Virus record (IMG/VR): IMGVR_UViG_3300046715_000149
Span: 2,493 to 66,492 of that record
DNA length: 64,000 nucleotides
Reading direction: 5' to 3' (one strand)
Source of the DNA: a virus
In this document: positions 5,982-64,000 of the stretch, one piece after another
Layout of the letters: every line of letters begins with the position of its first letter
How positions within the stretch are numbered: the stretch's first letter is position 1
The notes under the pieces: model-generated
The model's input: only the letters and a program-made list of their open reading frames with translations
What the model was told of the DNA's origin: nothing
Databases searched by the model: none
Made by a program: the position numbers and the translations under genes

Positions 5982-5995
5982 GACGCCCCCCTCGC

Positions 5996-7111: not shown

Positions 7112-7130
7112 ACGTACGGACCGAGGGGAG

Positions 7131-10179: not shown

Positions 10180-10198
10180 GAGACGAGAGGGGACGAGG

Positions 10199-11367: not shown

Positions 11368-11380
11368 TCTAGCAGGTGGC

Positions 11381-11425: not shown

Positions 11426-11442
11426 CTTATGAAGGGGAGACG

Positions 11443-15631: not shown

Positions 15632-15853
15632 GTGGCCGAACAGATGGGACCCGACGACCTTGCCGACCACCTGGCTCAGTGCCGACAGGTGGACGCCGCC
15701 TTGGTTGGCGGCACGGGTGTGGACATGACCGAGACCGTTCAGATGTTGATTGCCGCCGGATGGACGTACAAGGGGACCGAATACGTAGCCGGGAAGCGGG
15801 TGCGATACCTCGCACCGCCGCCCCCGGAGGAGAACCGAGAGGAGAACCGATGA
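15632..15853 (+). CDS. hypothetical protein
   Basis: Fills the gap with coupled start and stop. Confidence 0.5.
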   Translation: MAEQMGPDDLADHLAQCRQVDAALVGGTGVDMTETVQMLIAAGWTYKGTEYVAGKRVRYLAPPPPEENREENR

Positions 15854-19504: not shown

Positions 19505-19777
19505 ATGAGGACCGTGACGATCGGGACCGACCCGGCCTGCGACATCGTGGTCGACGACCCGTACGCCTCGCCGGTGCACTGCCGGTTAACCGAGGGCAGA
19601 TTCTGCGTCTGGGTGGTTCAGGATCTCGGCTCGACAAACGGCACGACGGTCATGCGTAACGGACAGATCCGGGACAGGCTGGGCCTGGGTGCAACGTGCC
19701 ATCTCACCACCGGTGATGTGCTGGTGATCGGGCGGACCCGGATGCCGCCGTTCACGCCGGAGCGGGTGGCGGGATGA
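19505..19777 (+). CDS. stand-alone FHA-domain protein
   Basis: VTIGT..CDIVVDDPYASPVH...VQDLGSTNGT...LTTGDVLVIG. Confidence 0.85.
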   Translation: MRTVTIGTDPACDIVVDDPYASPVHCRLTEGRFCVWVVQDLGSTNGTTVMRNGQIRDRLGLGATCHLTTGDVLVIGRTRMPPFTPERVAG

Positions 19778-31690: not shown

Positions 31691-32179
31691 ATGGGCAGCC
31701 AGACGCCACGCGACGTGACTCACCCGCCGGCCAGGCAGGCAGAGACGTACGAGAAGCGGCGCCGCGCGGCCGAGCTCCGGCGGGCCGGCTGGACGTGGGA
31801 TGCCGTTGCCGAAGAGGTCGGCTACTCCAGCAGAGGGTCGGCCCACGCAGCGGTCAAGGCTCTGCTCCAGGAACACCAGTCACTCGCCTACGACGAGATC
31901 GCCCTCTACCGGCAGGAGTCGCTGGACCGGCTGACCGACCTGCTCAAGGTGGCAATGAAGGGCGCGCTCGCGGGCGACGAGAAGATGATGCGCGAGGCGC
32001 GTCTGATCATAAGCCAGATCGGCGACCTCACCGGCGAGAAGGCTCCGCTCCAGGTGCAGATCGGGGAGAGCGATGTCGATCGACTTCTTCGGGAAGCTCT
32101 CGACGAGTTCCGACGCCGAACTGCTCAGCTTGATCGGAAAGCTGGAGCAGATCCAGGACGTGCAGCGCAAGACGGCTGA
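31691..32179 (+). CDS. terS: terminase small subunit (HTH)
   Basis: LRRAGWTWDAVAEEVGYSSRGSAH HTH; immediately upstream of TerL. Confidence 0.75.
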   Translation: MGSQTPRDVTHPPARQAETYEKRRRAAELRRAGWTWDAVAEEVGYSSRGSAHAAVKALLQEHQSLAYDEIALYRQESLDRLTDLLKVAMKGALAGDEKMMREARLIISQIGDLTGEKAPLQVQIGESDVDRLLREALDEFRRRTAQLDRKAGADPGRAAQDG

Positions 32180-35002: not shown

Positions 35003-36328
35003 ATGTCGTTCACCGGAATTCCGCGCACACCGGAGGGCACGCTCGGCGCCCAGTACGACGCGCTGGCCATGGACCTACTCGAGAACGTGCCCGCGCTGAC
35101 CTTCCCGCTGTCGGTCCAGACCTACTCGCGGATGCGCACGGACCCGCAGATCAGCGCGGTGCTCAAGGCCTACACGTACCCGCTGCGCTCGGCGACCTAC
35201 GTGGTCAACCCGTCCGGCTGCCGCGACGAGGTCGTCCAGTTCGTCGCGGACCAGTGGGGCCTGCCGATCATGGGCGACGATGCAGGACCCGGTCCGGCCC
35301 GGCGCAAGGGCCTGCGCTGGGACGAGCACATCCGGCTCGCGCTGCTCATGCTGCCGTTCGGCTTCTCGCCGTTCGCGAAGTGGTTTGACGTGGGCGGTAC
35401 CCCGCTGCGCGCCCGGCTCGGCGGACTGTCCGAGCGGCTGCCGCAGACGATCAGCGACATCCGGGTCAACGACGACGGTTCGCTGCAGGGCATCATCCAG
35501 TACGGCGCCGAGGACATGATCCCCGTCCGCGACCTGCACTGGTACGCCCACGAGCGCGAGGGCTCGGCCTGGCAGGGCCGCTCGCTGATGCGTGAGGCGT
35601 ACGGGCCATGGCTGCTCAAGCACGAGATGTGGCGCGTCATGGGTCAGTCGTCGCGCCGATTCGGCATGGGCGTGCCGACCGTGACCGCGCCGCCCGGTTC
35701 ACCGCCGGCCGACGTGACCGCGGCCGCCGACATCGCTGCCGGCTACCGCGCGGGCGACCAGTCCGGCATCGGCCTGCCCGACGGCTTCAAGTTCGACCTG
35801 ACCGGCCTGTCCGGCTCGGTGCCCGACACGAAGGCGTTCGTCGAGTACCTGGACGCGCAGATCGCGACCAGCGTGCTCGCCGAGATCCTGAACCTGGACA
35901 CCGCGAGCACCGGCAACCGCGCGCTCGGCGAGACCGTGATCGGCCTGCTGCAGATGTCCTGGTCAGCCACCGCGAAGGAGATCACCGGTCCGGCCACCGA
36001 CCTGAGCATCGAGATGGTCGACATCAACTTCGGCGAGGACGAGCCCGCCCCGCAGATCATGTGCACGGACGTCACCCGCCCGGAGCTGACCAGCGAGGCC
36101 ATCGCCGCGCTCGTCTCGGCCAAGGCGCTGACCGCGGACATCGGCCTCGAGAACGAGGTCCGGCTGCGCTATGGCCTGCCCCCGATCACCGACGCCGACC
36201 GCACGGCCGCCATGCCGCAGCCGGTCGTTCCGCCCGCCCCGGCCAACCCGCCGGCCACCGACCCGAACGCGCCACCTGCTCCGGCATCGAAGACCGCCCA
36301 GCCCGCAGGAGCGTCGGCCGGTGGCTGA
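35003..36328 (+). CDS. portal protein (Mu gp29/DUF935-like)
   Basis: MRTDPQISAVL, FGFSPF, GRSLMR..Y..WLLK, RFGMGVP, GNRALG. Confidence 0.9.
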   Translation: MSFTGIPRTPEGTLGAQYDALAMDLLENVPALTFPLSVQTYSRMRTDPQISAVLKAYTYPLRSATYVVNPSGCRDEVVQFVADQWGLPIMGDDAGPGPARRKGLRWDEHIRLALLMLPFGFSPFAKWFDVGGTPLRARLGGLSERLPQTISDIRVNDDGSLQGIIQYGAEDMIPVRDLHWYAHEREGSAWQGRSLMREAYGPWLLKHEMWRVMGQSSRRFGMGVPTVTAPPGSPPADVTAAADIAAGYRAGDQSGIGLPDGFKFDLTGLSGSVPDTKAFVEYLDAQIATSVLAEILNLDTASTGNRALGETVIGLLQMSWSATAKEITGPATDLSIEMVDINFGEDEPAPQIMCTDVTRPELTSEAIAALVSAKALTADIGLENEVRLRYGLPPITDADRTAAMPQPVVPPAPANPPATDPNAPPAPASKTAQPAGASAGG

Positions 36329-39044: not shown

Positions 39045-39974
39045 ATGGCCATCACCTACCCGCCCACGGTTCCGACCCTCTCGGGCGACGTCCTCACCAT
39101 CTCGCGGTTCCTCAACACCCCGACCGCCGTGGCCCGCCGGCTGCGCACGATCGCTGAGAACCGCTTCATCGCCGACGTGCTGCTGTCCGGGCGCGTCGAG
39201 GGCTCCTCGATCCTGTACGAGACCGACGAGTCCATCTACACCTCCCGCGCCCCCGAGGTCGTCACGCCGGGCGGGCAATACCCGCGCTCGGTGGCGCCGA
39301 CCGGCACGGCCGCCGTGGCCAACCCGGTCAAGTGGGGCCAGGAGGTGCCGATCACCGACGAGGAGATCGGCCGCTTCCGCGGCGACGCCGTGGAGCGCAA
39401 CCTGCAGAAGATCGTGAACTACCTCGTGTTCACCGTCGACACGACCGCGCTCGCGGTCATCGCCGCCGGTGTCACCGCGTCGGTCGCCGCGCTGGTCGCC
39501 TGGAACACCCTGGCCACCGCCAACCCCGTGCTCGACCTGCTGCGGGCCAAGGCCACGATCCGCGCCACGAACAAGGGCTACGACCCGGACACCGTGGCGT
39601 GCGACGACTTCGCGTACGCCTACATCATCGGCAACTTCAACGTGCTGGCGACGATGGCTCGCGAGAACGGCCAGACCGCCAGCATCACCGGCAACGTGGT
39701 CGAGATCGCCGGACTGCGCATCCTGCCGACGCCGAACCTGCCTACCGCGGGCACGGCCATCGTCGTCGACTCGCGGGTTCTGGGCTCGCTCGGCTACGAG
39801 CGGATCCCGAGCCCGGAGTACTCGGGCGACCCGTCCACCGGCGTCGAGACGCAGTCCCGGCGCAATCCGGCCGGCAACGACGAGTGGCTGGTCCGCGGCC
39901 GCCGCCCGGTCGTCCCGTTCGTCCAGGAGCCCGGCGCCGGATGCAAGATTACCGGTATCGGCACCCTGACCTGA
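39045..39974 (+). CDS. major capsid protein
   Basis: 309 aa, synteny, EVVTPGGQYP, KWGQ..ITDE, VQEP.A. Confidence 0.88.
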   Translation: MAITYPPTVPTLSGDVLTISRFLNTPTAVARRLRTIAENRFIADVLLSGRVEGSSILYETDESIYTSRAPEVVTPGGQYPRSVAPTGTAAVANPVKWGQEVPITDEEIGRFRGDAVERNLQKIVNYLVFTVDTTALAVIAAGVTASVAALVAWNTLATANPVLDLLRAKATIRATNKGYDPDTVACDDFAYAYIIGNFNVLATMARENGQTASITGNVVEIAGLRILPTPNLPTAGTAIVVDSRVLGSLGYERIPSPEYSGDPSTGVETQSRRNPAGNDEWLVRGRRPVVPFVQEPGAGCKITGIGTLT

Positions 39975-48614: not shown

Positions 48615-48811
48615 GGAATTACTGTACTCCCAGCGGACCAACATCGCGATAGGCGGACTGGCGTGAGCAATCGGACGTGGGTGTGGCTCGTCCTGGTCTG
48701 CACGCTGCTGGCCCTGCTGGTGACGCTCGCGATCATCAACACGTGGATGACCGGATAGCGGCCCGAGGTCCCCATCGTTCCGGTCGCCGCAGTCACGTGA
48801 CCCGGCTGTCG

Positions 48812-48884
48812 TCCCAGGCGGGGAGTCGAACCCAACCTCTCGCCCTGCGTTCGGGCGAGCGCTCTGCCACTGAGCTAGCCCGGG
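48812..48884 (-). tRNA. tRNA-like element with 7-bp anticodon stem (loop GAACGCA)
   Basis: Acceptor CCCGGGC/GCCTGGG, TAGCTCAGTGGCAGAGC D arm, CTCGCCC-GAACGCA-GGGCGAG, GGTTCGACTCC T loop with a shortened stem. Confidence 0.7.
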
Positions 48885-49632: not shown

Positions 49633-50439
49633 CATCCAGATGAACGCCGGCGGCACGTGGCCGCCGCCGCCGTGGACCGGCATGCCGGACCAGCCGTCGG
49701 ACGGCCAGCCGTACTACACCACGCTTCCGCGCGATACGCCGATGGCCGATCCGACCTCGCGCGATGCGCAGGCCGCGGCCGAGGGGGTCGTGCTCGACCC
49801 GGACGGCGACTACCTCGATTTCTACGACGAGAAGTTCCGGCTGGCGGACAAGGTCGGGCTTGCGCCGATGATCCGGTTCGGCGCTGCTGCGAACCGCGGG
49901 CTCGACTCCGACGACATGGAAGGCCTGGCCGCGATGCACTCGCTCATCCGGTCGGTCATCCACCGCCCGCCGCTGCTGGACGAGCACGGCCAGCAGCAAG
50001 TCGACGTCAACGGCAAGAAGCTGCGCGACGAGAAGGAGTGGAACCGCTTCCTCGACCTCGCCGAGGACGAGCTTGCCGACGGCGACGAGATCATGGACTT
50101 CGTCAACCGGGCGATGGAGATCATGGCCGCCCGCCCTACCAAGCCGCGAGAGCTCTCCTCGGGTGGATCGCGGACAACTTCGGCGAGTTCGAGGGCCGGC
50201 TCGTCCTCGCGGGCCATGCACCCCGATGTGGCTGGGCTGACGCCGGTCGCGGATCTGGGCCGCTAGACGACATGCCGCTGCGGGTGGCGCTCAATGCCGC
50301 CTACGCGATGTTGACCCAAGGTCTGGAAGCGGACCAGCGGCAGCAGATCGACGAGCAGATCTACGGGTGGGGCGAGATGAACAACCAGGCCAACCGTGTG
50401 CTTCGCATGGGCGTGGACGACAGCGGAGGTGAGAGCTGA
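49625..50439 (+). CDS. tail assembly chaperone (49625-50266) with probable -1 frameshift extension to 50439
   Basis: Position between major tail and TMP; the -1 frame is open and protein-like from ~50134 to the TMP start. Confidence 0.7.
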
Positions 50440-53400
50440 TGGTGGCTCTTGCCTCCGCGTTCGTTCGTGTCCGGCCACAGGTCGACCGGAACGAGTTCGC
50501 CAAGGCGGCCGAACAGGTCGGCCAGGATGCCGGGAAGGTTTACGGCGACGCCTTCGCCCGCGGGTCCGACGGCAAGCTGAGCGACTCTCGCAGCAAGATG
50601 GTCAAGGAGTCCGAGAAGGCGGCCGGGGACGCCGGGGGCAAGTCCGGGCGAGCGTTCGGCAAGAGCTTCGGCCGGGAGACGGACAAGTCGTCCGGCGCGT
50701 TCAGCAAGGCCATCGCGCTGATGGCGGCCAAGACGACGCTGTTCGCCGGGACGGCCGCGGCGGCTGCACCGGGCATCATCCACCTGACTGCCGCCCTCGC
50801 CCCCGCGGTCGGGGTGATCGCCGGGCTGCCCGCCGTGCTCGCCGCAGGCGGCGCGGCGATGGCCACGTTCAAGGTTGCCACGGGAGGGGTCGGCAAGGCG
50901 ATCACCGCCGGGCTGACCGGCACGGCCAAGCAGGCGCAGAAGGCGTTGGACGCGCTGCCGCCATCGGCGCAGCGGTTCACGAAGGTGATCGTCGGACTCA
51001 AGCCTAAGATCGATGCGCTGCGCCAGTCGGTGGCCGAGCGCTTCTTCCGGCCGCTGACTGATGACATCAAGCCGCTGGCCGACAAGTACTTCCCGCTGAT
51101 CAAGACGCAGATGTCCAACCTTGCCGGACCGCTGGGCGGACTGGCCGAACAGTTCACCAAGACCGCCCGGAGCAGTCGCGTGTTCTCGGCCGTGTCCAGC
51201 GTCTTCAAGAACACCCGCGTGTCGGTGATCCTGCTGCGCGGCGCGATCGACCCGCTCACCAAGGCGCTCGCCGCAGTGATCAGCGCGACCGCGGGAAAGC
51301 TGCCCGGTCTGGCGCAGGGCTTCGCCGACGGTGCGGCCAAGGTCGGCGTCTTCCTGCAGAAGGCCGCCGCGTCCGGTCAGATCAGCCAGTTCTTCCAGGC
51401 CGGGCTGACCACGCTCAAGCAGTTGGGCGGGATCGTCGTCAACGTCGGCTCGATCCTGCAGAGCGTGTTCTCTGCGGCGACCGCGACCGGCAACAACCTG
51501 CTCGGCAACCTCAAGGCGCTGACCAGCCAGGCGGCGGCCTTCCTCAAGAGCGTCCAGGGCTCGAGCGCGCTCGCCTCGCTGTTCGGCACCCTCGCCCAGT
51601 TCGGGCAGGCGCTGCGCACCTCGCTCGGCGCCGTGCTGCCCGCCATCGCGACGAGCATCCAGATCCTCGCCCCCGCCGTGGCCGGCCTGGCCGGCCCGTT
51701 CGCCCAGCTGATCGTCGCGGTGGCCCCGCTGCTGCCGATGTTCGCCGGGTGGGCCGCAGTCATCATCACGAAGCTGACACCGGCCATCACGACGCTATCG
51801 AAGTTCCTGGCCGAGCACACCGACGTGGTCAAGGCGGCTGCGACCGCCGTCGGTGCGTTCCTGGCCGTGCAGAAGCTGGCCGCGGCCGCCATCGCCATCC
51901 AGGCGGCGGGCGGCCTGCTCGCATACGCCAAGGGCCTGCAATTGGTCACCACACTCACGAAGATCTGGACCGGCGCGCAGGCTGCGCTCGACGTCGTGCT
52001 GAACGCCAACCCAATCGGCCTGGTCGTCGTCGCGATCGCCGCGCTGGTGGCCGGGATCGTGCTGGCCTACAAGCACTCCGAGACGTTCCGTAACATCGTG
52101 CAGGCGGTATGGGGCGCGATCAAGGTGGCGATCGGCGCGACCGTCGACTGGATCGTCAACGTCGCGTGGCCCGCGATCAAGAAGGCGTGGGACGCGATCG
52201 CGGCCGCCGGGCTGTGGCTCTGGCACAACGTGATCGAGCCGGTCTGGCACGGCATCCAGGCGGTCATCAGCTTCGTGGTCGCCGCCGTGAAGACCTACAT
52301 CGCGATCATCGTGGCCGAGTTCAAGTTCGTCGCTGGCATCGCGTTGTGGCTGTGGCACAACATCTTCGAGCCCGTGTTCAACGGGATCAAGAAGGTCGTC
52401 GAGATCTGGTGGCTGGCCACCGAGATCGTCTTCAAGCTGTTCGCGGACGTGACCCGAGTGATAGTCGGCGCGGCGGTCGGCTTCCTCAAGTCGGTGTTCA
52501 CCGCGGTGTTCGGCTTCATCAAAGACAAGGTGATCACGCCCTGGTGGACCACCATCCAGCTGATATTCAACGCCTTCCGGTCCTACGTGATCGGCCCCAT
52601 CGCCGCCGCAGCCGAATTCCTGCGCTCGCTGTTCGCCAGGATCTTCACGGCGATCGGCAACACCGTCATCGGCTGGTACCGCAACTACATCGCGCCGATC
52701 TTCACCGCGGTCCGCAACGCATGGAACACGCTGGCACTCGGCTTCTCCATCATCTACAACACAAAGATCAAGCCGGTGTTCGACGCGTTCGTCGGCTTCA
52801 TCAAGGGCACCGTGGTCAAGGGCTTCCAGACCGGCGTCTCGCTCATCTCCAAGGCATGGAGCGCCGTGCAGGCTGCGGCAAAGGCGCCCGTGACGTTCGT
52901 GGTCAACCACGTGATCAACCCGTTCATCAACGGCCTGAACAAGGCGGCGTCGATCGTCGGCGTGAAGGACCGTGTCGAGCCGATCAAGGGCTTCGCGACC
53001 GGCGGGCAGCTGCCCGCTTACGCGACCGGCGGCCGGATCGCCGGTGCGCCGTCGGCCGTCGACAACCGGCTGGCGCCGGCCACGATCCCCGGCGTCGGCG
53101 CGGTGAAGCTGGCCGGCGGCGAGTACGTGGTCAACGCGCAGGACACGGCCAAGGCGCTCCCGCTGCTCAAGTGGGTCAACGCCGGAATGAAGGGCGGAGC
53201 CGCGGGGATCTCCCGCTACCTCGGCCGGCCGCTCACCGAGTTCCCCGGTGACGGGTCGGAGGGCTGGGCGTTCGCCGATGGCGGGCTCGTCGGCTGGACC
53301 AAGGACGTGTGGGGCGCGCTGACCAATCCGGGCGCGACCATCCGCAAGCCGTTCGAGGCGTTGCTCAATCAGATCCCAGGCGTCGGCATGATCAAGGATT

Positions 53401-54122
53401 TCCTGATCGGCTCGGCCAAGAAGTTCCTCGGCTCGGCGATCGGCTGGATCACCGGCATCGGCGGTCCGGTCTCCGGGTCGCTCAACAACGTGCAGCGCGC
53501 CGTGCAGGCCCGGGCGTTCGTGCAGAACCAGGCGGGCAAGCCCTACATCTGGGCGTCGGCCGGACCGCGCGGCTACGACTGCTCCGGAATCGTCAGCGCG
53601 GCGTACAACATCCTCAAGGGCAACAACCCGTACAGCCATACGTTCTCCACCGAGAGCCTGCCCGGTCGGTGGTTCGACACCCGGCAGAAGCTCGGCACGC
53701 TGATGGCCGGCTGGTCGCACCCGGGCCAGAGTCCGGCGTCGGCGTCCGTCGGTCACATGGCCGGGCAGATCGCGGGCATGCCGTTCGAGTCGACCGGATC
53801 GTCCGGCGTCCGGATCGGCGCCCGGGCCCGCCGGTTCACGCAGTTCGCCAACACCGGTGCCGCGCGGGCGTCGGGCGGGCTCATCGATTTCCCGCCGGTC
53901 CGGCTGTTCGACAAGGGCGGGCTGTGGCCGTCCGGCACGCTCGGTGCCAACATGTCCGGACGCACCGAGTACGTGGACCCGACCGGCCGCGGCGGATCGC
54001 GGACCTACCAGATCACCATCAACGTCGCGGCCGGCGCGCATCCGGTCGAGGTGGGCCGGCAGGCGGTGATCGCGATCCAGGCGTTCGAGAACGCGAACGG
54101 CGCGGCCTGGCGGAAGCCGTGA
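50439..54122 (+). CDS. tape measure protein with C-terminal NlpC/P60 domain
   Basis: 1227 aa, ANPIGLVV, W/F periodic repeats, GKPYIW...GYDCSG...GHMA. Confidence 0.92.
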   Translation: MVALASAFVRVRPQVDRNEFAKAAEQVGQDAGKVYGDAFARGSDGKLSDSRSKMVKESEKAAGDAGGKSGRAFGKSFGRETDKSSGAFSKAIALMAAKTTLFAGTAAAAAPGIIHLTAALAPAVGVIAGLPAVLAAGGAAMATFKVATGGVGKAITAGLTGTAKQAQKALDALPPSAQRFTKVIVGLKPKIDALRQSVAERFFRPLTDDIKPLADKYFPLIKTQMSNLAGPLGGLAEQFTKTARSSRVFSAVSSVFKNTRVSVILLRGAIDPLTKALAAVISATAGKLPGLAQGFADGAAKVGVFLQKAAASGQISQFFQAGLTTLKQLGGIVVNVGSILQSVFSAATATGNNLLGNLKALTSQAAAFLKSVQGSSALASLFGTLAQFGQALRTSLGAVLPAIATSIQILAPAVAGLAGPFAQLIVAVAPLLPMFAGWAAVIITKLTPAITTLSKFLAEHTDVVKAAATAVGAFLAVQKLAAAAIAIQAAGGLLAYAKGLQLVTTLTKIWTGAQAALDVVLNANPIGLVVVAIAALVAGIVLAYKHSETFRNIVQAVWGAIKVAIGATVDWIVNVAWPAIKKAWDAIAAAGLWLWHNVIEPVWHGIQAVISFVVAAVKTYIAIIVAEFKFVAGIALWLWHNIFEPVFNGIKKVVEIWWLATEIVFKLFADVTRVIVGAAVGFLKSVFTAVFGFIKDKVITPWWTTIQLIFNAFRSYVIGPIAAAAEFLRSLFARIFTAIGNTVIGWYRNYIAPIFTAVRNAWNTLALGFSIIYNTKIKPVFDAFVGFIKGTVVKGFQTGVSLISKAWSAVQAAAKAPVTFVVNHVINPFINGLNKAASIVGVKDRVEPIKGFATGGQLPAYATGGRIAGAPSAVDNRLAPATIPGVGAVKLAGGEYVVNAQDTAKALPLLKWVNAGMKGGAAGISRYLGRPLTEFPGDGSEGWAFADGGLVGWTKDVWGALTNPGATIRKPFEALLNQIPGVGMIKDFLIGSAKKFLGSAIGWITGIGGPVSGSLNNVQRAVQARAFVQNQAGKPYIWASAGPRGYDCSGIVSAAYNILKGNNPYSHTFSTESLPGRWFDTRQKLGTLMAGWSHPGQSPASASVGHMAGQIAGMPFESTGSSGVRIGARARRFTQFANTGAARASGGLIDFPPVRLFDKGGLWPSGTLGANMSGRTEYVDPTGRGGSRTYQITINVAAGAHPVEVGRQAVIAIQAFENANGAAWRKP

Positions 54123-55411: not shown

Positions 55412-56017
55412 ATGCCATTCAAGGTCTTCACCAACGGGAGCGTGCTCCCGGACACCGACCTGAACGACTACCTGATGGAGCAAGCGGTCATCTCCTGCAC
55501 GTCGGGTACCCGGCCGGGCTCGCCGAACAACGGCATGACCATCTTCGAGACCGACACGAACCGGTACGCGTGCTATAGCACCTCGGCCGTTGCGTGGCTG
55601 TACTTCGGCCAGGTCATCACCGGCGGGTGGACCCCCACGCTGACCGCAGTGACGACCAACCCGACGCTCGGCTCCGGCGGCGGGCAGAACGGCCGGTTCA
55701 CGCTGTTCGGCGGGAAGTGGTGCACGCTGCGGTTCTCGATCGCCTTCGGCACGTCCGGCACCAACGCGGGCAGTGGGCAGTATCTGGTCGCGCTGCCGTT
55801 CACGGCGTCGTCCGCCATCACCGGCGGCGTCCCGAACACTGCGGGAGGTGTCGTGCGAGCCGGCGGGTCGGTCGCCACCGTGACGTGGTTCGCCTCGTCG
55901 GGATCGACCACGATGGCGGCGCTGACCACGTCGGGCAGCAACGTGGCCAGCGGCGCGCCGGGCGCGTGGGGCGTCAACGACTACCTCAGCGGGACGTTCA
56001 CGTACGAGATCGCCTAG
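55412..56017 (+). CDS. minor tail / fibre protein
   Basis: FKVFTNGSVL..DLNDYLM.QAV, WTPTLT, LSGTFTYE. Confidence 0.75.
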   Translation: MPFKVFTNGSVLPDTDLNDYLMEQAVISCTSGTRPGSPNNGMTIFETDTNRYACYSTSAVAWLYFGQVITGGWTPTLTAVTTNPTLGSGGGQNGRFTLFGGKWCTLRFSIAFGTSGTNAGSGQYLVALPFTASSAITGGVPNTAGGVVRAGGSVATVTWFASSGSTTMAALTTSGSNVASGAPGAWGVNDYLSGTFTYEIA

Positions 56018-56841
56018 CAGGCGGTGGCGCGCCAGGCCACGTAGGCGGCGGGCTTGCCGGTGATGAAGCCCGAGACCAGAAGCTTTCCGGAAGAATCCCG
56101 GTAGGTTGCCATGCGTGCCCACTCGCTGGCGTCGTCTCCGGCGGCCGGGTCCGCCCACGCGTAGACCCGCAGTCCGGCGCCGGTCCACTTGGTCAGCCGC
56201 GCGCCGGTGATCGCGTCGTGATGCTTGAGCAGGATGCTCGCGTGCGGGGTGATGTCCGCCGGGTCCGCGTCGCCGACCGACTGGTCCAGCGCGCGGGTGT
56301 AGCCGGGCAGCCGGACGGCCACCTGATCCAGGACGGCCGGGTCGAAGGACTCGAGCGCGGGCTTCGGGCCTCCGGCGCCGGCCTGGCTGGTGAGCGCGGC
56401 GATGAACATCGCCCACTGCGCCTCGGTCGGCATCACCTTCGGCTCGACGAACATGTAGGCCTTGTCCACGCTCTGGTCGTTCATGATCTCGGCGAGGGTC
56501 GGCACGGGCTGGCCGTCGGCGGTGCGCAGATTTGCGATTTGCGCAAATGTCAAATCCGCAACCGCGCCCGTTCCGTCCGTGGTCCGGTCGACCGTCTCGT
56601 CGTGCATGATGACCGGCACGTCGTCGGAGGTGAAGCGGACGTCGGTCTCCCAGAAGCCGACACCGGAGTTGCTCGCCTGGCGGAACGCGTTGCGGGTGTT
56701 CTCGACGTACCGCTCGGTCCCGCCGCGGTGCGCGACCGGTCCGGGCGTGGCGCACGTGGCCGCGCTCGCGGGAACGGCCGAGGCGGCGAGCACGAGCGGG
56801 ACGACGGCGGCCACCGCGAGCGGCCGGAGGATTCTCATCAT
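56014..56841 (-). CDS. secreted glycerophosphodiester phosphodiesterase (GDPD/GlpQ-like)
   Basis: Signal peptide ending ASA; AHRGG, ENT..AF, ETDVRFTSD..PVIMHD.TVDRTT, VPTL.E, EPK. Confidence 0.9.
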   Translation of the reverse strand: MMRILRPLAVAAVVPLVLAASAVPASAATCATPGPVAHRGGTERYVENTRNAFRQASNSGVGFWETDVRFTSDDVPVIMHDETVDRTTDGTGAVADLTFAQIANLRTADGQPVPTLAEIMNDQSVDKAYMFVEPKVMPTEAQWAMFIAALTSQAGAGGPKPALESFDPAVLDQVAVRLPGYTRALDQSVGDADPADITPHASILLKHHDAITGARLTKWTGAGLRVYAWADPAAGDDASEWARMATYRDSSGKLLVSGFITGKPAAYVAWRATAC

Positions 56842-56882: not shown

Positions 56883-57869
56883 ATGTCGATCGAGGGAGTG
56901 GACTACGCCGACAGCCGGCCCAGCGCGAGCGCACTGAAAGCCGCCGGCAAGCACTTCGCCGTCAGGTACGGCGGACCAGGCCGGGCCAGCAAGCAGCTGA
57001 CGGCGAGCGAGGCAGATGCGCTTCGGGCGACAGGAATCGACATCGTGGCCAACGCCGAAGGTGCCGCCTCGGGATTCAAGGGGAAGGCGACAGGGCGAAC
57101 CTGGGCACAGCAGGCTCTCGATCACTTCGGCCCGCTGGGAATGCCGGAGGGCCGGCCGGTGTATTTCTCTGTCGACTGGGACGCCGGGTCTGCCGATTGG
57201 GCCGGTATCGACGCGGCGCTCTCCGGTGCTGCGGGGGTCCTCGGCGCCGGGCGGGTCGGCGTGTACGGCAGCTACGACACCGTCGCCCACTGCAAGCAGG
57301 CGGGATCGGCGTCGTGGTTCTGGCAGACCTACGCATGGAGCGGCGGCAAATGGCATCCGGCTGCCCACCTTCAGCAGTACAAGAACGGCGTGACCATCGG
57401 GGGAGCCGACTGCGACCTCGACCGCGCGATGACCGACGACTACGGACAATGGGGAGTGAGTGACGTGAGTGAAGCAGAGGTCACCAGCGCGCTGACCAAG
57501 TTCTTCTCGGTCGGCAGTCAGCCGGTCAGCAAGGGCGGGCTGCCCGAGTCGAAAATCGGCCACGATGCCAGCTCGCAGGGCGTGCCGGACACCATCTCCG
57601 GCGGCACGATCACCCTGTACGGGCTGATCGGGAAGATCGGGACGCAGGTGCTGCTCGCGCGCAAGGACCTCGCCGACCTGGCCGGTAGGGATCTGGTAGA
57701 TGAGGATGCTATCGCGGCGAGCGTGCTGATGGGGCTGACCCCCGAGCGCCTCGGCGCCGCAATCGTGGCCGCGGGGCTGACGCCGAGCGCACTGGTCGCC
57801 GCGATCCCGGACGACCTGGCCGAACAGGTGCTCGCGCTGCTGGGCGAGAAGCTCCGCCCGTCGCAGTGA
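56883..57869 (+). CDS. endolysin, DUF1906/GH25-like glycoside hydrolase
   Basis: GVDYA, FAVRY, VYFSVDWD, GVYG, WQTYAWS, DYGQW. Confidence 0.85.
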   Translation: MSIEGVDYADSRPSASALKAAGKHFAVRYGGPGRASKQLTASEADALRATGIDIVANAEGAASGFKGKATGRTWAQQALDHFGPLGMPEGRPVYFSVDWDAGSADWAGIDAALSGAAGVLGAGRVGVYGSYDTVAHCKQAGSASWFWQTYAWSGGKWHPAAHLQQYKNGVTIGGADCDLDRAMTDDYGQWGVSDVSEAEVTSALTKFFSVGSQPVSKGGLPESKIGHDASSQGVPDTISGGTITLYGLIGKIGTQVLLARKDLADLAGRDLVDEDAIAASVLMGLTPERLGAAIVAAGLTPSALVAAIPDDLAEQVLALLGEKLRPSQ

Positions 57870-58758: not shown

Positions 58759-59322
58759 ATGGCGATCCGGCCGGGCTTCAACTCGGAGCTCAACCTCGTC
58801 GCGGCTGGCCCGACGACGTGGGCGCTGACCGTGCCGCTCGTGTGGACCGGAACGAAGGGCGACACGTTCGTCGTGCCGACGGGATTTCTGACCGACTTCG
58901 CGACCGTGCCGCGGTTCCTGCACTGGGAGGTCTCGCCGTACGGCGCCTACACCCGCGCGGCCGTGCTGCACGACTGGTTGCTGGTCAGCCTGGCCGAATG
59001 GGACCGAGAGGTCAGCCGCGAGGGCGGCGGGGCGTGGCTGCCGCCCGCGAACTCGCGCGACTGTGACGGGATCTTCCGGCGGGTGATGGAGGACCTCGGC
59101 GTGCCGTGGGCGAAGCGCTGGACGATGTGGACCGCAGTGCGGTGGGCGTCGCTGTTCAACTCGCGGCGCGCGTACGGCCGGCGCATCGGCCGGGACCTGC
59201 CGGCCATGCTTGGCATGACCCTGCTCGCGCTGCCGGTGAGCTTGCCCGGCGCGCTCGGCGTACTGATCTCGCTCGGCCTGCTCAAGATAGTCAACATGCT
59301 CGCGCGCATCGTGCGCGCGTGA
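58759..59322 (+). CDS. DUF1353 family protein
   Basis: VPTGFLTDFATVP, AAVLHDWL, D.IFRRVM, MWTAVR. Confidence 0.85.
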   Translation: MAIRPGFNSELNLVAAGPTTWALTVPLVWTGTKGDTFVVPTGFLTDFATVPRFLHWEVSPYGAYTRAAVLHDWLLVSLAEWDREVSREGGGAWLPPANSRDCDGIFRRVMEDLGVPWAKRWTMWTAVRWASLFNSRRAYGRRIGRDLPAMLGMTLLALPVSLPGALGVLISLGLLKIVNMLARIVRA

Positions 59323-59336
59323 AGGAGGCGGAAGCC

Positions 59337-59642
59337 ATGGCAACACCCACCGTCCGGGACCTCGGCGCATCGTTGGTCCGGACCTTCGTCGCGACCGCGG
59401 TCGGCGTCGGCATCGCGTGGCTGGCGAAGAACGCGCACTTCGTGATCGACGACGCCACGTCGGCCGGCCTGGTGCAGGCGTTCACCGGCGTGGTCATCGG
59501 CGCCTACTACTTGGTGATCCGTACGCTCGAGACCAAGGTCCCCGGGTTCGGATGGCTGCTCGGCCTGGCCAAGCTGCCGACCTACCCGGCGGCCACAGGT
59601 GAGGTGCCGGTCCCCGCGTCGGGTAGCGTTCCGACCAAGTAG
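59337..59642 (+). CDS. holin
   Basis: Two TM; SLVRTFV...YYLVIRTLE...GWLLG..K.P.Y actinophage holin pattern. Confidence 0.75.
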   Translation: MATPTVRDLGASLVRTFVATAVGVGIAWLAKNAHFVIDDATSAGLVQAFTGVVIGAYYLVIRTLETKVPGFGWLLGLAKLPTYPAATGEVPVPASGSVPTK

Positions 59643-59666
59643 CTTCCGGGGTCGAGCACCCGGACA

Positions 59667-59709
59667 GAGAACCGCCCCCGAACCGTCGCGGCCCGGGGGC
59701 GGTTTTTCT
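59667..59709. terminator. terminator between convergent arms
   Basis: AACCGCCCCCG / CGGGGGCGGTT followed by TTTCT. Confidence 0.8.
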
Positions 59710-59719
59710 GTGTCCGGAG

Positions 59720-60148
59720 CTAGTGCTTGTGGTCGCGGCAGTGCACGACGACGCCGGGGCAGTCGCCCTTGCGGCGGGTCACCAGCGCGAGTCCGATCCC
59801 GCCGAGGACGACCAGCGCGCCGAGCGCGGCCGGGCGGTCCAGCGCGCCGGCCATGGATCGAAGCGCGAGGTAGAGCAGGCTGACGCCCGCAGCGAGCACG
59901 ACGGTCAGGATGCTGCCACCGATCAGCATCGGCTTGAGCACCGGGTGCCGTTTACCCCACGCGATCGGCTGGTCGACCAGCACCGTCACGTCGGCGGTCA
60001 CCGTGCCGTCGCCGTTGCGGCGCAGGGCCACAGCGCGCGGGTCGGTCACCAGACGGCCCTGTCGGTACTGGGTGAGCAGGGCCGCGCGGACCTGCGGGGC
60101 CGTGCCCACGATCGGCAGGTTGCGCGGCACGAGGTTGCTGCTGGTCAT
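59720..60148 (-). CDS. two-TM membrane protein with C-terminal CPG..HC..H motif
   Basis: SD GAGAGGGG; hydrophobic C-terminal half. Confidence 0.65.
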   Translation of the reverse strand: MTSSNLVPRNLPIVGTAPQVRAALLTQYRQGRLVTDPRAVALRRNGDGTVTADVTVLVDQPIAWGKRHPVLKPMLIGGSILTVVLAAGVSLLYLALRSMAGALDRPAALGALVVLGGIGLALVTRRKGDCPGVVVHCRDHKH

Positions 60149-60209
60149 CGTCTGCCCCTCTCGGTGATCTGATGATAGAGCATCGGGCATACAGTGCGTC
60201 CTTGCTCAC

Positions 60210-60250
60210 GACAAAGCCCCTGCTCGGGGGTCGGGAGCAGGGGCTTTGTC
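60210..60250 (-). terminator. 16-bp stem hairpin terminator
   Basis: GACAAAGCCCCTGCTC / GAGCAGGGGCTTTGTC. Confidence 0.8.
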
Positions 60251-60265
60251 CGGGGTGGGGAAGGA

Positions 60266-60643
60266 TCAGGAGGCGAGCAGCGCCACTGCGTACGCGCCCA
60301 GGCCGAGCCAGACGAGAACGGTGAGCAGGCCGCGGACGATCAGGAACGGCGCCGAGGGAACCTCCACCCGCCAGGCGGCGACCGTGCCGATCGCGGCGAC
60401 GGTCGCTACTAGGATGAAGCCGATGGGCAGGTGGCCGAGGCCCGGACCCGCGCCGGTGAAGAGCGGGACGAACACGTGCGCGAACAGCCACCACGCGCCG
60501 AGGCCGATCGTGCCGGCCCCGACCAGGATGCCGGTGGGCACGGCGCCGAAACGCCGGAAGCGCAGCCAGCGGGCGTGCCGGGTGCCGTAGTCGGCAGCAG
60601 CGGCGCGTTCAGCCGTGGCGTTCCACTCTTCCTTGCTCAGCAT
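60266..60643 (-). CDS. three-TM membrane protein
   Basis: Hydrophobic; SD GAGAGG. Confidence 0.65.
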   Translation of the reverse strand: MLSKEEWNATAERAAAADYGTRHARWLRFRRFGAVPTGILVGAGTIGLGAWWLFAHVFVPLFTGAGPGLGHLPIGFILVATVAAIGTVAAWRVEVPSAPFLIVRGLLTVLVWLGLGAYAVALLAS

Positions 60644-60738
60644 CCCGGTTACCTCTCGTCTCCCCTCGGTGTCTCCATTAGAACACGGAGCGTCGTCACC
60701 GCCTCGTCATCGCGCTGACGATATGGTCGCGCAGTAGA

Positions 60739-61023
60739 TCACGGGCCGTAATCCGCTCGTCGGGCTTTGAGCGTGTAGGCGTCCAGATCGTTACGCAGGG
60801 CATCGATCCGAGCGATCACGTACGGGCCATCTTCCTTGTCATCCAGTTCGCCGCGCGAGCGGAGTTCGGCCAGCAGTTCGGCACCGGTTGCGTTAGCCAG
60901 TCCGTGGCTGTTCATCGCCTCGACGACCAGCGCGGCGTCTTCGGCGGTGAACATGACGCCGATGTACGCGCCGTCGCGATAGAGGTTCTGCGGCTGGTGG
61001 TTGCCGACGCGGTAGGCGGTCAC
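60739..61023 (-). CDS. hypothetical protein
   Basis: YRVGNHQPQNLY...IGVMFTAEDAALVVEAMN. Confidence 0.6.
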   Translation of the reverse strand: MTAYRVGNHQPQNLYRDGAYIGVMFTAEDAALVVEAMNSHGLANATGAELLAELRSRGELDDKEDGPYVIARIDALRNDLDAYTLKARRADYGP

Positions 61024-61253
61024 GGCTCGACCCTCGGCGCAGCGGTGAGTGTCCAGGTCTTCGCGCCGTTCGCAGCCACACCGGCCGCACGGACCTCGCC
61101 ATAGCCGACGAGCCGCTTGATCGAGCCGCGCACGTGGGTGACGCTGAGGAGGAGCTGGTCGGAGATCTCGCCGATGGTCTCCGGCACTTCGCCCCTGCGG
61201 ATCAGGTTCGCGAGGTGGTCGGTGACCTGGCGGTCGACGTGGTCGGTGGCCAT
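61020..61253 (-). CDS. winged-helix DNA-binding protein
   Basis: TIGEISDQLLLSVTHVRGSIKRLV..GEV; SD GGAGGAGG. Confidence 0.7.
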   Translation of the reverse strand: MATDHVDRQVTDHLANLIRRGEVPETIGEISDQLLLSVTHVRGSIKRLVGYGEVRAAGVAANGAKTWTLTAAPRVEP

Positions 61254-61254
61254 G

Positions 61255-62182
61255 TCAGCCCTCCTCCGTTCCGGCGGCGAGGCGGGCGTGGTGGTCGGCT
61301 GCGGGCAGCGGCAGCGTGCCGCTTCCCTCGCAGGGCACCTTGTGCCAGCGGCCGGGCTCCGAGCGCATGTGTTTGACGGTGAGTCCGGCCTTGGTCAGCT
61401 TGGGCCAGTCGCGGCAGGTCTGGCATTGGCCCCGCGTCTGGTCGGCCCAGTCGGGGCGCGCATCCGCTTGGTTGTTGAGGGTGGTCACGTGGTTTCTCCT
61501 GGCGTGAGGGCTTGGTGGTCGGCACGGCGGGCGGCGTGGTCAGTTCGTCAGCACCAGCCCGGGATGACCGAGGACCGCTCCCGGGTTCGGGCAGCGGGAG
61601 GGGACGACGGTGGCGATGTGGATGAGGATGTCCAACTGGGTTTTCAGGTCGCCGAACGTCCAGAAGAGCGCGTCGGCGTCCCGCCGAGCCTTTCCGAGAG
61701 CGGCCGAATATTCCTCGGCGTAACTGAACGCGCGGGCCGGCGGCATTCCCGCCGCGATGGCGGCATTCGCGAGGCGGTCGGCGATGTCGGCTGCCTCATT
61801 GTCGGCGACCCGTTGGAGCACCTCCCTGGCCTTTCGCTGAATGTCACGGACCGCTTCGGCCGTGGCCTCGAGGTCGTGCAGGAGTCGGATGGTGTCAGAT
61901 GGATTGTGCATGTTTCCCCAATTCCTCGGCGTGCTTCTCGGACAGTGCCTTGACCTTCTCGGCGGCCCGGCCGGCGGCGCGCAGGGCGTCCGCAAACTCG
62001 GTGAGGGTGCGTTCCGCCTCCTCCGCAACCTCGGCCGCACGCTCGGGCGGCATGCCGTGCTCGATCGCGGCGGCCACGGTGGCTTTGCGGCTTGCGGACA
62101 TCTCGTCTGCGGGCACCTCTGCGGACGCACGGACATCCGCAGACAGGTAGATGACCACCTCGATCAGCTCAAACAGATCCAT
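61255..62182 (-). other. three hypothetical ORFs (61255-61488, 61540-61911, 61895-62182)
   Basis: Coupled ORFs downstream of the TraA-like gene. Confidence 0.55.
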
Positions 62183-62190
62183 GGGGTTCC

Positions 62191-62553
62191 TCAGTCGAAG
62201 TCGAAGCCAGAACCACGGCCGCCAGAGCGCGGCGCGGCGGTGGCGTGGATGGTGTAGAAGCGCTCGTGCGACAGGCGGAAAGCCTTGCCCATCGCCTCGG
62301 CGGCGGCGGCACACTGGCCCATCGGCTTGGTCACCGAGCGGGCATAGGCCCGCAGATCGACGCGGGCCCACGCCAGCTTCTGCGCCCACTTGCTGCCGGT
62401 CTTGGGCGTGCGCAGGCGATGGTTCGTCTGCGCCGAGATGACCTGGAGCTTGGTGTAGATCTCGTTGCTCAGCGCGGACATGCGCCGCTCCAGGTCGTTG
62501 AACTCGGCCTTGTTCCTCGGTGCCACGAGCCACGGAAGCATCTCGTCAGCCAC
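62191..62553 (-). CDS. TraA-like plasmid transfer accessory protein
   Basis: Helical ~120 aa with ARSVTKPM...AAAAEAMGKAF...F and a terminal GFDFD, recalled as similar to Streptomyces TraA; adjacent to traB. Confidence 0.45.
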   Translation of the reverse strand: MADEMLPWLVAPRNKAEFNDLERRMSALSNEIYTKLQVISAQTNHRLRTPKTGSKWAQKLAWARVDLRAYARSVTKPMGQCAAAAEAMGKAFRLSHERFYTIHATAAPRSGGRGSGFDFD

Positions 62554-62587
62554 GATCGTCCCCTCTCGTTTGATCACGGTGCGTTGC

Positions 62588-62712
62588 CGTCAGGCGTGTG
62601 TCAGGTCACCTGTCAGGCCGGTGTCAGGGGGTGTCAGTGGATCTCTGACACCCTGGGATTCCCTTAAGGAAAAGAGGCGACCGGCGACCCCTGACACCTC
62701 CGTCGGTGTCAG
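62588..62712. repeat. clt-like array of (G)GTGTCAG(G) repeats
   Basis: Eight copies (six direct, two inverted) in 125 bp directly downstream of the traB stop. Confidence 0.75.
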
Positions 62713-62723
62713 CGGGTGTTTGA

Positions 62724-64000
62724 TCACTGGGAGTGATCGTCGCCGGAGGTCGGCCGGATGCGGTACTGACCCTTCCGGGGGTCGCCGTGCCGCTCGATGA
62801 TCACGCCGTCCTCGACCGAGCCGCCGTCCATCAGCACGCCGGTCAGCCAGTTCGACACCCACGGCCGGGAGCGCAGGCCGAGCTCGGCGAACACCTGGGC
62901 CACCGTGACGATCACGGTGCCGGGCACCTTCCGGTCGGCGTAGCGCGGATCGGCCAGCATCCGGATCAGGGTGGCGCGGCCCTCGGTCCGGGCCTGCTCG
63001 GCGCTGACCGCGGCCGGCTTGTCGTCCTCGGCGCTGTCGGCCAGCGGGTCGACGTCCATGTCCGGCGGCCGGAACTCGACGCGGGTGTCCATGCCCTTGA
63101 TCGCCTCGGTGTCGTCGTCGTTGCCGTACAGCTCGATGCCGTCGACCTCGGTCGTCTCCGCAACGTCCTGCTCGAACTCGGCCATCATCTCCTCCATCTC
63201 CTCGGGGTCGATCGCGTCCTCGTCGTCCGCAACCGGTTGTCGGTTCTGCGGGGCCTGCGGGCGCGGGTTGCGGGTTGCGGGGCGGGACTCGTTTGCGGAT
63301 TGCGGGGACAACATGCGGGTCCGCAAGTCCAGCGTCTTTGCGGACTGCTCGGCCCACCAGCCGTCGGTCGCCTCGGCCGAGCCGCGATCGAGGCGCGCCA
63401 TTCTCGGAGCGCTCGCCAGATTGCGGCGCAGCATCTCGGTCGTGTAGCGGTCGTTGAGCGTGTCGAAATCGATCGGGCGACCGTTCGCGTCATTCGGATC
63501 ACCGACGAGAAAGCGGGTCTTGAGCGCTATCGGGAACCGCGTCTCGTCGATTCCGGGGCCGATCATGTAGTGCTGGCCGGGCTTGCGCTGACCCCATTTG
63601 CCGGGCGAGGCGCCGGCCATCCGGACCTCGGTGTCGAGGATGAACTCCTCCTCGTCGGTCGAGTTCATGCCGTGCACGAACCACAGGCCGATGTTCGCGC
63701 GCAGGTCGGTCGGCATCGCCTTCCAGTCCGGGCGCTGCAGCGACCACCCCGAGTTGATGCCGAGCGACAGACCCTTGCTGGCGATGTGGCCGGCCAGACC
63801 GGCCAGCCGGCCCGAGGCGAGGATCGAGTCCGCCTCGCCGAAGTGGGCGGTCAGGAACGGCATGGGCTCCATCGGCACACGGCGGCCGCCGACGATCGCG
63901 GTCGGACGCCGGTCCGGGTCCGGGTCACAGCAGCGCGGCGACCACGCCGAGACAGCGAACCGGGCGAGCTGCTGCTGGCGGTAGATCATGATGGCCTTGA
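62724..64000 (-). CDS. traB: TraB-like FtsK/SpoIIIE conjugative DNA translocase (5' end outside window)
   Basis: SLQRP...MPTDLRAN, GASPGKWGQRKPG..Y..GPGIDE.R, acidic linker, C-terminal wHTH with RSRPWVS. Confidence 0.8.
   Translation of the reverse strand, partial: KAIMIYRQQQLARFAVSAWSPRCCDPDPDRRPTAIVGGRRVPMEPMPFLTAHFGEADSILASGRLAGLAGHIASKGLSLGINSGWSLQRPDWKAMPTDLRANIGLWFVHGMNSTDEEEFILDTEVRMAGASPGKWGQRKPGQHYMIGPGIDETRFPIALKTRFLVGDPNDANGRPIDFDTLNDRYTTEMLRRNLASAPRMARLDRGSAEATDGWWAEQSAKTLDLRTRMLSPQSANESRPATRNPRPQAPQNRQPVADDEDAIDPEEMEEMMAEFEQDVAETTEVDGIELYGNDDDTEAIKGMDTRVEFRPPDMDVDPLADSAEDDKPAAVSAEQARTEGRATLIRMLADPRYADRKVPGTVIVTVAQVFAELGLRSRPWVSNWLTGVLMDGGSVEDGVIIERHGDPRKGQYRIRPTSGDDHSQ

Follow-up and report, generated by a model that had tools for sequence, protein, structure and literature searches.

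How a gene for a plasmid-type DNA translocase comes to lie among the genes of a tailed phage, and what it may do there, is the question raised by the IMG/VR virus record IMGVR_UViG_3300046715_000149. The record measures 66,492 bp; the stretch analysed (the window, 64 kb of a tailed phage) corresponds to its bases 2493-66492, and coordinates given below are those of the window unless otherwise stated. The locus, at positions 59720-64000, hosts traB, which encodes a relative of the TraB translocases of Streptomyces plasmids, an array of short repeats resembling the transfer locus (clt) of such plasmids, and a TraA-like gene. The original prediction made for this stretch had described a candidate conjugative phage-plasmid. 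By analogy with plasmid systems, the locus is here interpreted, with moderate confidence, as a working TraB-clt(-TraA-like) module for translocation of double-stranded DNA (dsDNA), and as a vertically inherited core component of a lineage of integrase-less tailed actinophages. Its parts are the following.

62724 to 64000, minus strand: TraB-like translocase, C-terminal 424 codons (NCBIfam NF041214, plasmid_TraB)
62578 to 62723, no strand assigned: clt-like array of 146 bp, with eight 8-mers having a CTGAC core, consensus YCTGACAC(C)
62191 to 62553, minus strand: probable TraA-like gene of 120 amino acids (aa), directly after the array (ESM Atlas neighbours, own profile)

The reading frame of traB continues past the circular junction of the assembly into contig 1-1208, where its N-terminal 402 codons are located, beyond the window; the whole protein is 785 aa long. 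The window part matches the plasmid_TraB profile over positions 319-635 of 639 (E 9.5e-36), and the half encoded in contig 1-1208 over positions 20-341 (E 6.7e-24); the two halves, scoring 84.3 and 123.5 bits, jointly cover profile positions 20-635. Six full-length relatives match the same profile over about 600 of its 639 positions (E 7.5e-48 to 6.1e-72; 163.5-243.1 bits). The N half contains the Walker A motif GMTRSGKT, of which G294, G299 and K300 are invariant among 27 TraB sequences, and three to four transmembrane helices (three segments by hydropathy). An AlphaFold model, based on 27 sequences, was made for P0003, a TraB relative 83% identical to the phage protein (pLDDT 78.9). It features four N-terminal helices (residues 17-146), a motor of P-loop type, an acidic and disordered linker and, at the C terminus, a domain with the pattern H-E-H-H-E-E (residues 695-777). 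The top PDB matches retrieved by Foldseek are FtsK motor domains (6t8g, E 1.8e-12, TM 0.65), followed by EssC/EccC and by the TcpA coupling protein. The TraB-like translocase of the original prediction is thus borne out, by profile matches in both halves and by the FtsK motor fold predicted for P0003. The ratio of nonsynonymous to synonymous substitutions relative to L002, the nearest relative, is 0.21 in the N half and 0.36 in the C half, and TraB is under purifying selection.

In a plasmid collection 36 records match the phage TraB; 34 are from Streptomyces, and the matching genes, mostly annotated as traB, encode proteins ~35% identical to it over the ATPase core. The C-terminal domain carries the stretch RSRPWVS, found also in TraB of the Streptomyces plasmid pWTY27, and aligns with the TraB proteins of pWTY27, of a S. 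longwoodensis plasmid and of pCQ3, all having in common the motif SRPW(V/F)S. The motif falls where the alpha-3 recognition helix of the pSVH1 protein would be. This helix, part of a winged helix-turn-helix (wHTH) domain, is said to read the repeats in a passage of PMC3583192. Two loci in which the repeat word is TCTGACAG both carry RPFFV at the start of the recognition helix; these two related sequences hint that recognition helix and repeat word may covary.

The array fills the interval between traB and the next gene. Moving in the direction of traB, a direct copy is found 12 nt past the stop codon, then an inverted one, a hairpin and its T-run, a second inverted copy, five consecutive direct copies spaced 10-12 bp, and eventually the ribosome-binding site of the next gene; three copies, two of which inverted, thus flank the hairpin. 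CTGAC cores number nine in the 194 bp scanned (eight intergenic, one at the start of the next gene) vs 0.59 expected. The word GTGTCAG is not in excess in the whole window (9 vs 10.1 expected), and six of the nine occurrences fall in the interval 62598-62712. Of the seven CTGACACC sites present in the genome of 66,365 bp, five are clustered within 93 bp (62620-62712), and the repeat array noticed in the original prediction is therefore real. The same layout is found 3' of traB in all the related loci that reach that far (10/10), and 5-11 CTGAC cores are found in the ~200 bp after traB in 11/11 genomes, vs 0.6-0.8 expected. The repeat word drifts among lineages, being CTGACACC, TCTGACAG or CCTGACGC.

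The closest parallel is the clt of pWTY27 (Streptomyces sp. Y27, NC_013667.2). According to PMC3583192, transfer of this plasmid needs one FtsK-like gene (called TraA in that paper, traB in RefSeq) and a clt that includes 16 bp inside the gene as well as 159 bp next to it; a region with four 7-bp TGACACC repeats, the DC1 repeat of clt, is footprinted by the translocase. In the sequence record the pWTY27 clt consists of CCTGACACC-type words, with an inverted copy after a spacer. The same words are found 3' of traB in the S. longwoodensis plasmid, and CTGACAC words 3' of traB in pCQ3. In terms of sequence, the CTGACACC array is the same as the footprinted pWTY27 clt for both word and position, and comparison of these loci shows that the recognition word is common far beyond Streptomyces plasmids. 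An alternative reading of the array as an iteron origin was rejected, given the 8-bp units, the 10-12 bp phasing and the lack of a Rep gene.

The DNA flanking the module is that of a complete phage. The first and the last 127 bases of the record are identical, and the assembly closes as a circle of 66,365 bp, as the original prediction had asked to establish. G+C content is 66-73% along the whole window, with no compositional break at the traB arm. Gene calling guided by G+C at third codon positions yielded 105 open reading frames (ORFs), and about 118 ORFs were scanned with Pfam and PHROGs. Both collections identify a full set of virion, packaging and lysis genes, as expected for the complete siphovirus-type genome that had been predicted. 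The main landmarks are listed here.

32073 to 33725, plus strand: terminase large subunit (TerL; Pfam Terminase_6N; PHROG phrog_38, E 2.8e-86)
35003 to 36328, plus strand: portal protein, Mu-type (Pfam Portal_Mu, E 5.5e-39; phrog_113, E 1e-61)
39045 to 39974, plus strand: major capsid protein (Pfam Phage_capsid_4; phrog_1650, E 1.5e-71)
50439 to 54122, plus strand: tape measure protein (phrog_4197, E 1.7e-88)
56883 to 57869, plus strand: endolysin (Pfam Rv2525c_GlyHyd-like, E 1.1e-22; phrog_13480 endolysin, E 2e-31)

Other structural genes recognized in the same way encode a protease/MuF-like protein, a scaffold, connectors and a tail tube. The rightward early region encodes a RecE-like exonuclease, Erf, a DnaB-like helicase with an intein, a methylase, DnaN, a primase-polymerase and RusA. 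Integrase, ParA/ParB, Rep and GntR families are all missing among the about 118 ORFs, where unannotated systems of these kinds may be present; as to the integrase, the finding agrees with the original prediction. The nearest deposited phages are distant, TerL identity being just 36%. No match to either TraB half was found in 50,697 phage records (tblastn, E <= 1e-3).

The phage comes from a soil metagenome. Among the sequencing runs listed as containing its sequence none is from RNA; the only one to contain all of it is a soil metagenome that may be the source itself, while the others contain small shares. Relatives of this phage are known from metagenomes. Five contigs in IMG/VR, 65.6-70.6 kb long and estimated by CheckV to be 96-100% complete, encode TraB relatives (38-89% identity). 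TerL (59-98% identity) and TraB are both encoded in 5/5 of them, which is the co-occurrence that the original prediction suggested looking for. In these contigs traB has conserved flanks, with the early exonuclease and arm genes upstream and convergent lysis and tail genes downstream. Six metagenome contigs agree in gene order as far as they extend, homologues of the tape measure gene are located within 10 kb downstream of traB in the relatives L003, L004 and L006, and in the IMG/VR record behind L002 traB is contiguous and mid-record. A word-indexed search retrieved 66 full-length TraB homologues, 752-833 aa long and all metagenomic. The longest contig is 66-75 kb in 15 of the 66 homologue clusters, and none is longer, which argues against integrated copies.

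In a FastTree tree of 173 TraB-family proteins all 34 sequences of the lineage fall in one clade of 41 rows (support 99), so the phylogeny proposed as a check groups the phage proteins together. TraB of pCQ3 and of pWTY27 are in a separate clade of 53 rows (support 96). The next relatives of the 41-row clade include a gene of Rhizomonospora bruguierae (NZ_BBQH01000056.1; L007, locus 10001-12720), where the same triplet recurs, consisting of a TraB gene, a CTGAC array and a small gene; a GntR regulator is encoded 8 kb upstream, and the 10 kb examined yielded no phage genes. [quoted passage not shown] The best explanation for these data is that traB is a vertically inherited core gene of a lineage of tailed actinophages of ~66-70 kb. 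The phage itself does not fit the definition of AICE, as it has no integrase and a closed phage genome.

That a phage may carry a conjugation module is not a new idea, being preceded by pZL12 and pCQ3. [quoted passage not shown] In pCQ3 (NC_013449.1, 85.5 kb) annotated GntR, traA and traB genes lie beside genes for the major capsid protein, tail proteins, ParA/ParB and an integrase, and the pCQ3 capsid recurs in 39 plasmid records, mostly Streptomyces plasmids of 85-94 kb; a literature search for pCQ3 listed no paper describing it. These elements resemble the phage because tailed-phage genes and a TraB-type transfer gene coexist on one circular replicon. They differ, being plasmids of 85-94 kb of cultured Streptomyces that feature ParA/ParB, an integrase and GntR. 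Only five window proteins (six query pieces, TraB included) match pCQ3 at E <= 1e-3, with identity not exceeding 43%, and the two TerL proteins are 31% identical. Judging from these comparisons the backbone of the phage lineage is unrelated to that of pCQ3, TraB belongs to a separate clade and plasmid-maintenance genes are lacking; the two are independent recruitments. The distribution of TraB in the tree shows uptake by tailed phages at least twice, in this lineage and in pZL12/pCQ3-like plasmid-phages.

The resemblance to pWTY27 extends beyond the repeats. Both translocases are membrane-anchored and FtsK-like, in both systems clt is located at or just past the 3' end of the tra gene, and both have the TGACACC word, with an inverted copy after a spacer, as well as the recognition-helix motif SRPWVS. 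In contrast, the two proteins are ~36% identical over the ATPase core and fall in separate clades, the 14-kb plasmid pWTY27 has RepA and iterons, and its traA is located upstream of traB, with a DUF2637 gene in the same operon. About 0.7 kb past its clt, pWTY27 also hosts a gene annotated as phage major capsid protein (L018 4212-5354; record 10642-12102), which is odd for a small theta-type plasmid.

PMC4447253 describes for pSVH1 (Streptomyces venezuelae) a similar organization, with a single FtsK-like pump, a C-terminal wHTH, 8-bp repeats and membrane partners. A GntR-type TraR kil-kor regulator distinguishes pSVH1 from the phage, where none was found, and homology to Spd proteins is a lead in the latter. 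The authors of PMC4447253 suggest that phage DNA might spread with the aid of SpdB2 homologues in phages phiC31 and VWB. The pSVH1 repeat word is different from that of the phage array.

FtsK and SpoIIIE share with the phage protein the same motor fold, as predicted for P0003. FtsK and SpoIIIE load on DNA via a C-terminal wHTH (gamma domain) guided by an 8-bp word (KOPS/SRS). In these systems words are oriented genome-wide, whereas in the phage they are clustered in one array, and FtsK chains in the PDB have no match to the phage TraB at the sequence level. FtsK/SpoIIIE-like genes have been annotated in the Streptomyces phages Geonosis, Jaresh, AndoPrime and Gilgamesh, in Thermobifida phage P1312 and in SPO1-like Bacillus phages. 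They too encode ATPases of the FtsK superfamily in phages of sporulating or mycelial hosts, with predicted roles. A Streptomyces TraB matches 152 phage records, of which 149 are Bacillus phages.

The gene next to the array was compared with TraA proteins in two ways. Its closest neighbours in the ESM Atlas are three TraA-like clusters (PF28214; scores 0.89-0.90, 200-205 shared features). When a profile built on 10 orthologues was run against about 130 proteins, three annotated Streptomyces TraA ranked first, a weak ranking in terms of significance (E 0.0047, 0.024 and 0.16; 5-10 bits). A gene is present at this position in 9/9 relatives with sequence there. The NCBIfam scan of 62191-62577 gave no match. 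The TraA-like gene of the original prediction is accordingly kept as probable, on account of neighbours and profile ranking, and is not assigned to a named NCBIfam family. Two genes for membrane proteins upstream of traB are possible relatives of spread (Spd) genes.

2424 to 3470, minus strand: conserved membrane protein of 348 aa, with about four transmembrane segments and a C-terminal helix-turn-helix-like stretch
1418 to 2017, minus strand: accessory membrane protein, weak match to Pfam DUF2637 (E 0.0013, 19.1 bits)

The 348-aa protein is conserved in L002-L006 and L014, and its Atlas neighbours include SpdB_N, HTH_SpdB_C and DUF2637 clusters (0.86-0.93). It is possibly an SpdB-like spread protein, to be taken as a lead only. 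Its sole named homologue (40% identity, 64% coverage) is P0275, a hypothetical protein of 528 aa encoded by the 9.66-Mb chromosome of Catenuloplanes nepalensis, which hints at Micromonosporaceae hosts or at a related integrated element. BLAST revealed no similarity between the 348-aa protein and a Streptomyces DUF2637 protein. The DUF2637 match of the accessory protein, obtained with a longer ORF, is under the cutoff of 22.8 bits, and homologues are found solely in L005 and L014. In two Streptomyces plasmids, the spd/tra operons encode DUF2637 proteins.

Several observations weigh against a transfer module of plasmid type. The TraB scores (84-243 bits) are far under the NCBIfam equivalog cutoff of 800 bits, and by this measure the phage TraB is a homologue, not an equivalog, of plasmid_TraB. 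Pfam is blank on both TraB halves; at the sequence level the profile of the 27 relatives gives no match to PDB chains at E <= 0.01, and a fold search was needed. None of the 25 members of the 348-aa family matches Pfam DUF2637 at E <= 0.1, no Spd protein is backed by a curated model, and arm proteins compared by BLAST with TraA, DUF2637 proteins and neighbouring genes of three Streptomyces elements gave only matches with E > 0.01. No TraR/GntR kil-kor regulator was found by Pfam and PHROGs among the about 118 ORFs. The TraA-like gene lies downstream of traB, while in plasmids it lies upstream. The array brackets a terminator-like hairpin, sits right upstream of the next gene, and could equally be an operator. 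The role of the module in transfer is suggested by homology and analogy.

Modelled on pSVH1 and pWTY27, the mechanism would be the following. The N-terminal helices would anchor TraB in the membrane, TraB would form an FtsK-like ring, and the C-terminal winged helix would dock on the CTGACACC repeats just downstream of traB. The motor would pump the phage's own dsDNA genome across the septal cross-wall or into a neighbouring hypha, perhaps with help from the TraA-like protein and from the membrane proteins of the arm, one of which may be SpdB-like. A virion-independent route from cell to cell through a mycelial host would thus be available to the phage. Transfer may take place either out of a plasmid-like carrier state or in the course of productive infection. 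In a more specific version, which by analogy is conceivable and is put forward tentatively, a lytic or pseudolysogenic phage devoid of plasmid and integration functions would use TraB-clt as a 'movement protein', which would push genomes in replication through cross-walls or into touching hyphae ahead of lysis. One adsorption would take over many mycelial compartments, bypassing containment based on receptors and on development; the trait would have been long kept across a widespread lineage of soil phages, in which TraB identity drops to ~30%.

Other explanations account for part of the data. The phage could be a stable conjugative phage-plasmid, a circular plasmid prophage conjugating between hyphae like pZL12, and this is rather unlikely. 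The circular assembly without integrase is in keeping with such a state, as are the precedents of pZL12 and pCQ3 and the lack of homologue clusters with contigs >75 kb, so that integrated copies are not seen. However, terminally redundant virion DNA likewise gives a circular assembly, and loci of the ParA/ParB, Rep or iteron kind were not found in the phage, while pCQ3 has ParA/ParB and an integrase. Furthermore, no member of the lineage was found in isolate genomes (185,579 species genomes; 201 Micromonosporaceae). A stable phage-plasmid is somewhat disfavoured by the lack of maintenance genes and by that of carriers among isolates, and this claim of the original prediction is not supported. 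Less probable still is that the pump, acting as SpoIIIE or FtsK do for chromosomes, carries phage genomes through sporulation septa into prespores, or serves to segregate them between compartments, so that they travel in spores. TraB has the FtsK/SpoIIIE fold, phages of spore-formers commonly carry FtsK/SpoIIIE-like genes (149 of the 152 matched records being Bacillus phages), and several papers on Streptomyces phages name such genes and tie them to development. Yet, among relatives with an assigned function, conjugative TraBs and not chromosomal FtsK are the closest, the single array, with five of seven copies in 93 bp, is clt-like rather than KOPS-like, and recognition word and placement match the transfer locus needed for conjugation of pWTY27, as described in PMC3583192.

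The array might serve as operator, centromere or origin for another protein, e.g. the product of the next gene, TraB being involved in exclusion or host manipulation. This would fit the position of the array, located on both sides of a terminator-like hairpin and extending as far as the ribosome-binding site of the next gene. ParR-type centromeres are also typified by direct repeats with 10-12 bp phasing, like that of the phage array. Against this stand the constant association of the array with traB, seen also in pCQ3, in the S. longwoodensis plasmid and in Rhizomonospora, the lack of genes for a partition NTPase or Rep nearby, and the footprint left on the same word at the same place by the pWTY27 translocase itself, reported in PMC3583192; the explanation is judged very improbable. 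An artefact, due to chimeric assembly or to a prophage having an AICE or plasmid as neighbour, can be regarded as excluded, with a residual likelihood close to nil, because the circle closes, gene order recurs and TerL and TraB are found together in 5/5 complete records. In particular, the exact closing overlap of 127 bp falls inside the traB ORF, traB is mid-record in the IMG/VR record of L002, the same gene order is seen in independent assemblies, and one ribosome-binding leader (ACGAGAGGGG) is used on both arms. The adjacent element or chimera regarded as fatal to the original prediction was thus not encountered: the contig closes, and synteny holds in related phage genomes.

The interpretation as a TraB-clt translocation module of a phage lineage has broader implications. 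Should the phage genome be the substrate of the pump, a second, virion-free route of transmission would be available to phages that infect mycelial bacteria, and views would change on how plaques are contained, on host range and on gene flow mediated by phages in soil actinomycetes. The lineage is a clean test case, since the module is small (traB, the 146-bp array and the TraA-like gene) and conserved over deep divergence; as the genome lacks plasmid-maintenance genes, any transfer phenotype would be assignable to the module. A keyword search of the literature, mostly excluding subscription journals, found no TraB-clt module in a phage lineage lacking integrase and partition genes.

The host is weakly suggested to be a Micromonosporaceae-like mycelial actinomycete, on the grounds of the nearest cellular TraB (that of R. 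bruguierae), of major capsid homologues found in 11 of 201 Micromonosporaceae genomes (best identity 59%) and of the Catenuloplanes homologue of the 348-aa membrane protein. Members of the lineage were not detected by a two-pattern scan of 185,579 species-representative genomes, in which two of 56 candidate stretches proved relatives, neither being this phage. They were similarly not found in the 201 Micromonosporaceae genomes, where the only strong TraB match lies in a region whose examined 10 kb contain no phage genes. No TerL match was found in R. bruguierae. Capsid homologues without TerL occur in five Micromonosporaceae genomes; four of these lack TraB matches, and one has only a partial match of 34 bits.

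The arm in which the module resides converges with the rightward arm. The latter ends in a small membrane protein gene (59337-59642), and leftward genes start at 59720, in the order given here.

59337 to 59642, plus strand: holin-like small membrane protein, last rightward gene (position after the lysis genes, hydrophobic segments)
59664 to 59711, no strand assigned: convergent bidirectional terminator hairpin between the arms (predicted folding)
59720 to 60148, minus strand: membrane protein of 142 aa with two or three transmembrane segments, last leftward gene (hydropathy; no family match)
60266 to 60643, minus strand: membrane protein of 125 aa with three transmembrane segments (hydropathy; no family match)
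60739 to 61488, minus strand: variable region with three small ORFs (60739-61023, 61020-61253 and 61255-61488, the last Cys-rich)
61540 to 62182, minus strand: two similar small helical proteins (61540-61911 and 61895-62182; translations)

The product of 59337-59642, whose single family match is an unnamed PHROG, is presumably a holin. The hairpin that follows has a predicted folding energy of -45.6 kcal/mol on the plus strand, where UUUUU follows, and of -50.5 on the minus strand (z -3.8 and -5.0), and can well be the shared terminator expected after the holin-like gene. It was missed by a simple terminator scan, because the loop exceeds 8 nt. A simple promoter scan of 59300-64000 found no sites. 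The leftward early-type arm includes roughly 25 genes and runs 7 kb further upstream of traB, up to a divergent region at 7022-7131; traB is therefore mid-arm and not at the edge of an insert.

The two membrane proteins predicted in this arm were confirmed, each having two or three hydrophobic helices. Homologues of 59720-60148 are found in L002, L003, L006 and L012, and those of 60266-60643 in L002, L003 and L011. The three ORFs of the variable region match no family in Pfam, PHROGs or NCBIfam, and the region is not conserved in relatives, except for a stretch of 16 aa in L002; the wHTH regulator assigned to 61020-61253 found no support. The two small helical proteins look like a tandem duplication, having in common the stretch AAI..GMPP.RA; 61540-61911 is conserved in L002. 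The leader ACGAGAGGGG, said to recur in phage genes and in this locus, is present in four exact copies, two per arm, vs 0.33 expected (0/100 shuffles reach four), each located 5-7 nt upstream of a start codon. When one mismatch is allowed, copies are 10 vs 8.1 expected, with no excess over chance. The recurrence thus holds for exact copies only. The leader was rejected as proof of common origin, being a ribosome-binding context.

No Rfam family was found in the window at the gathering threshold. Two tRNAs scoring under this threshold were identified by ARAGORN. A tRNA-Val(GAC) of 79 nt, whose anticodon loop includes a CTGACAC word, is located within a non-coding gap of 724 bp in the leftward arm (5982-6704), and a tRNA-Arg(ACG) is found at 48811-48884.

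Some additional genes deserve mention. The DnaB-like helicase/primase-type protein (820 aa, 11682-14144, plus strand) is split by a LAGLIDADG domain, probably an intein. The phage encodes its own DnaN sliding clamp (15850-17016, plus strand), and a 90-aa protein with an FHA domain (19505-19777, plus strand) immediately precedes the primase-polymerase. A glycerophosphodiester phosphodiesterase gene (GDPD, E 5.2e-26; 56014-56841, minus strand) is located between tail genes and endolysin, on the strand opposite to its neighbours, and is conserved in L002 and partly in L003. Late in the early arm, a 283-aa protein (29452-30303, plus strand) contains a Pfam Globin domain exceeding the curated cutoff (E 3.6e-9), which is unusual for a phage.

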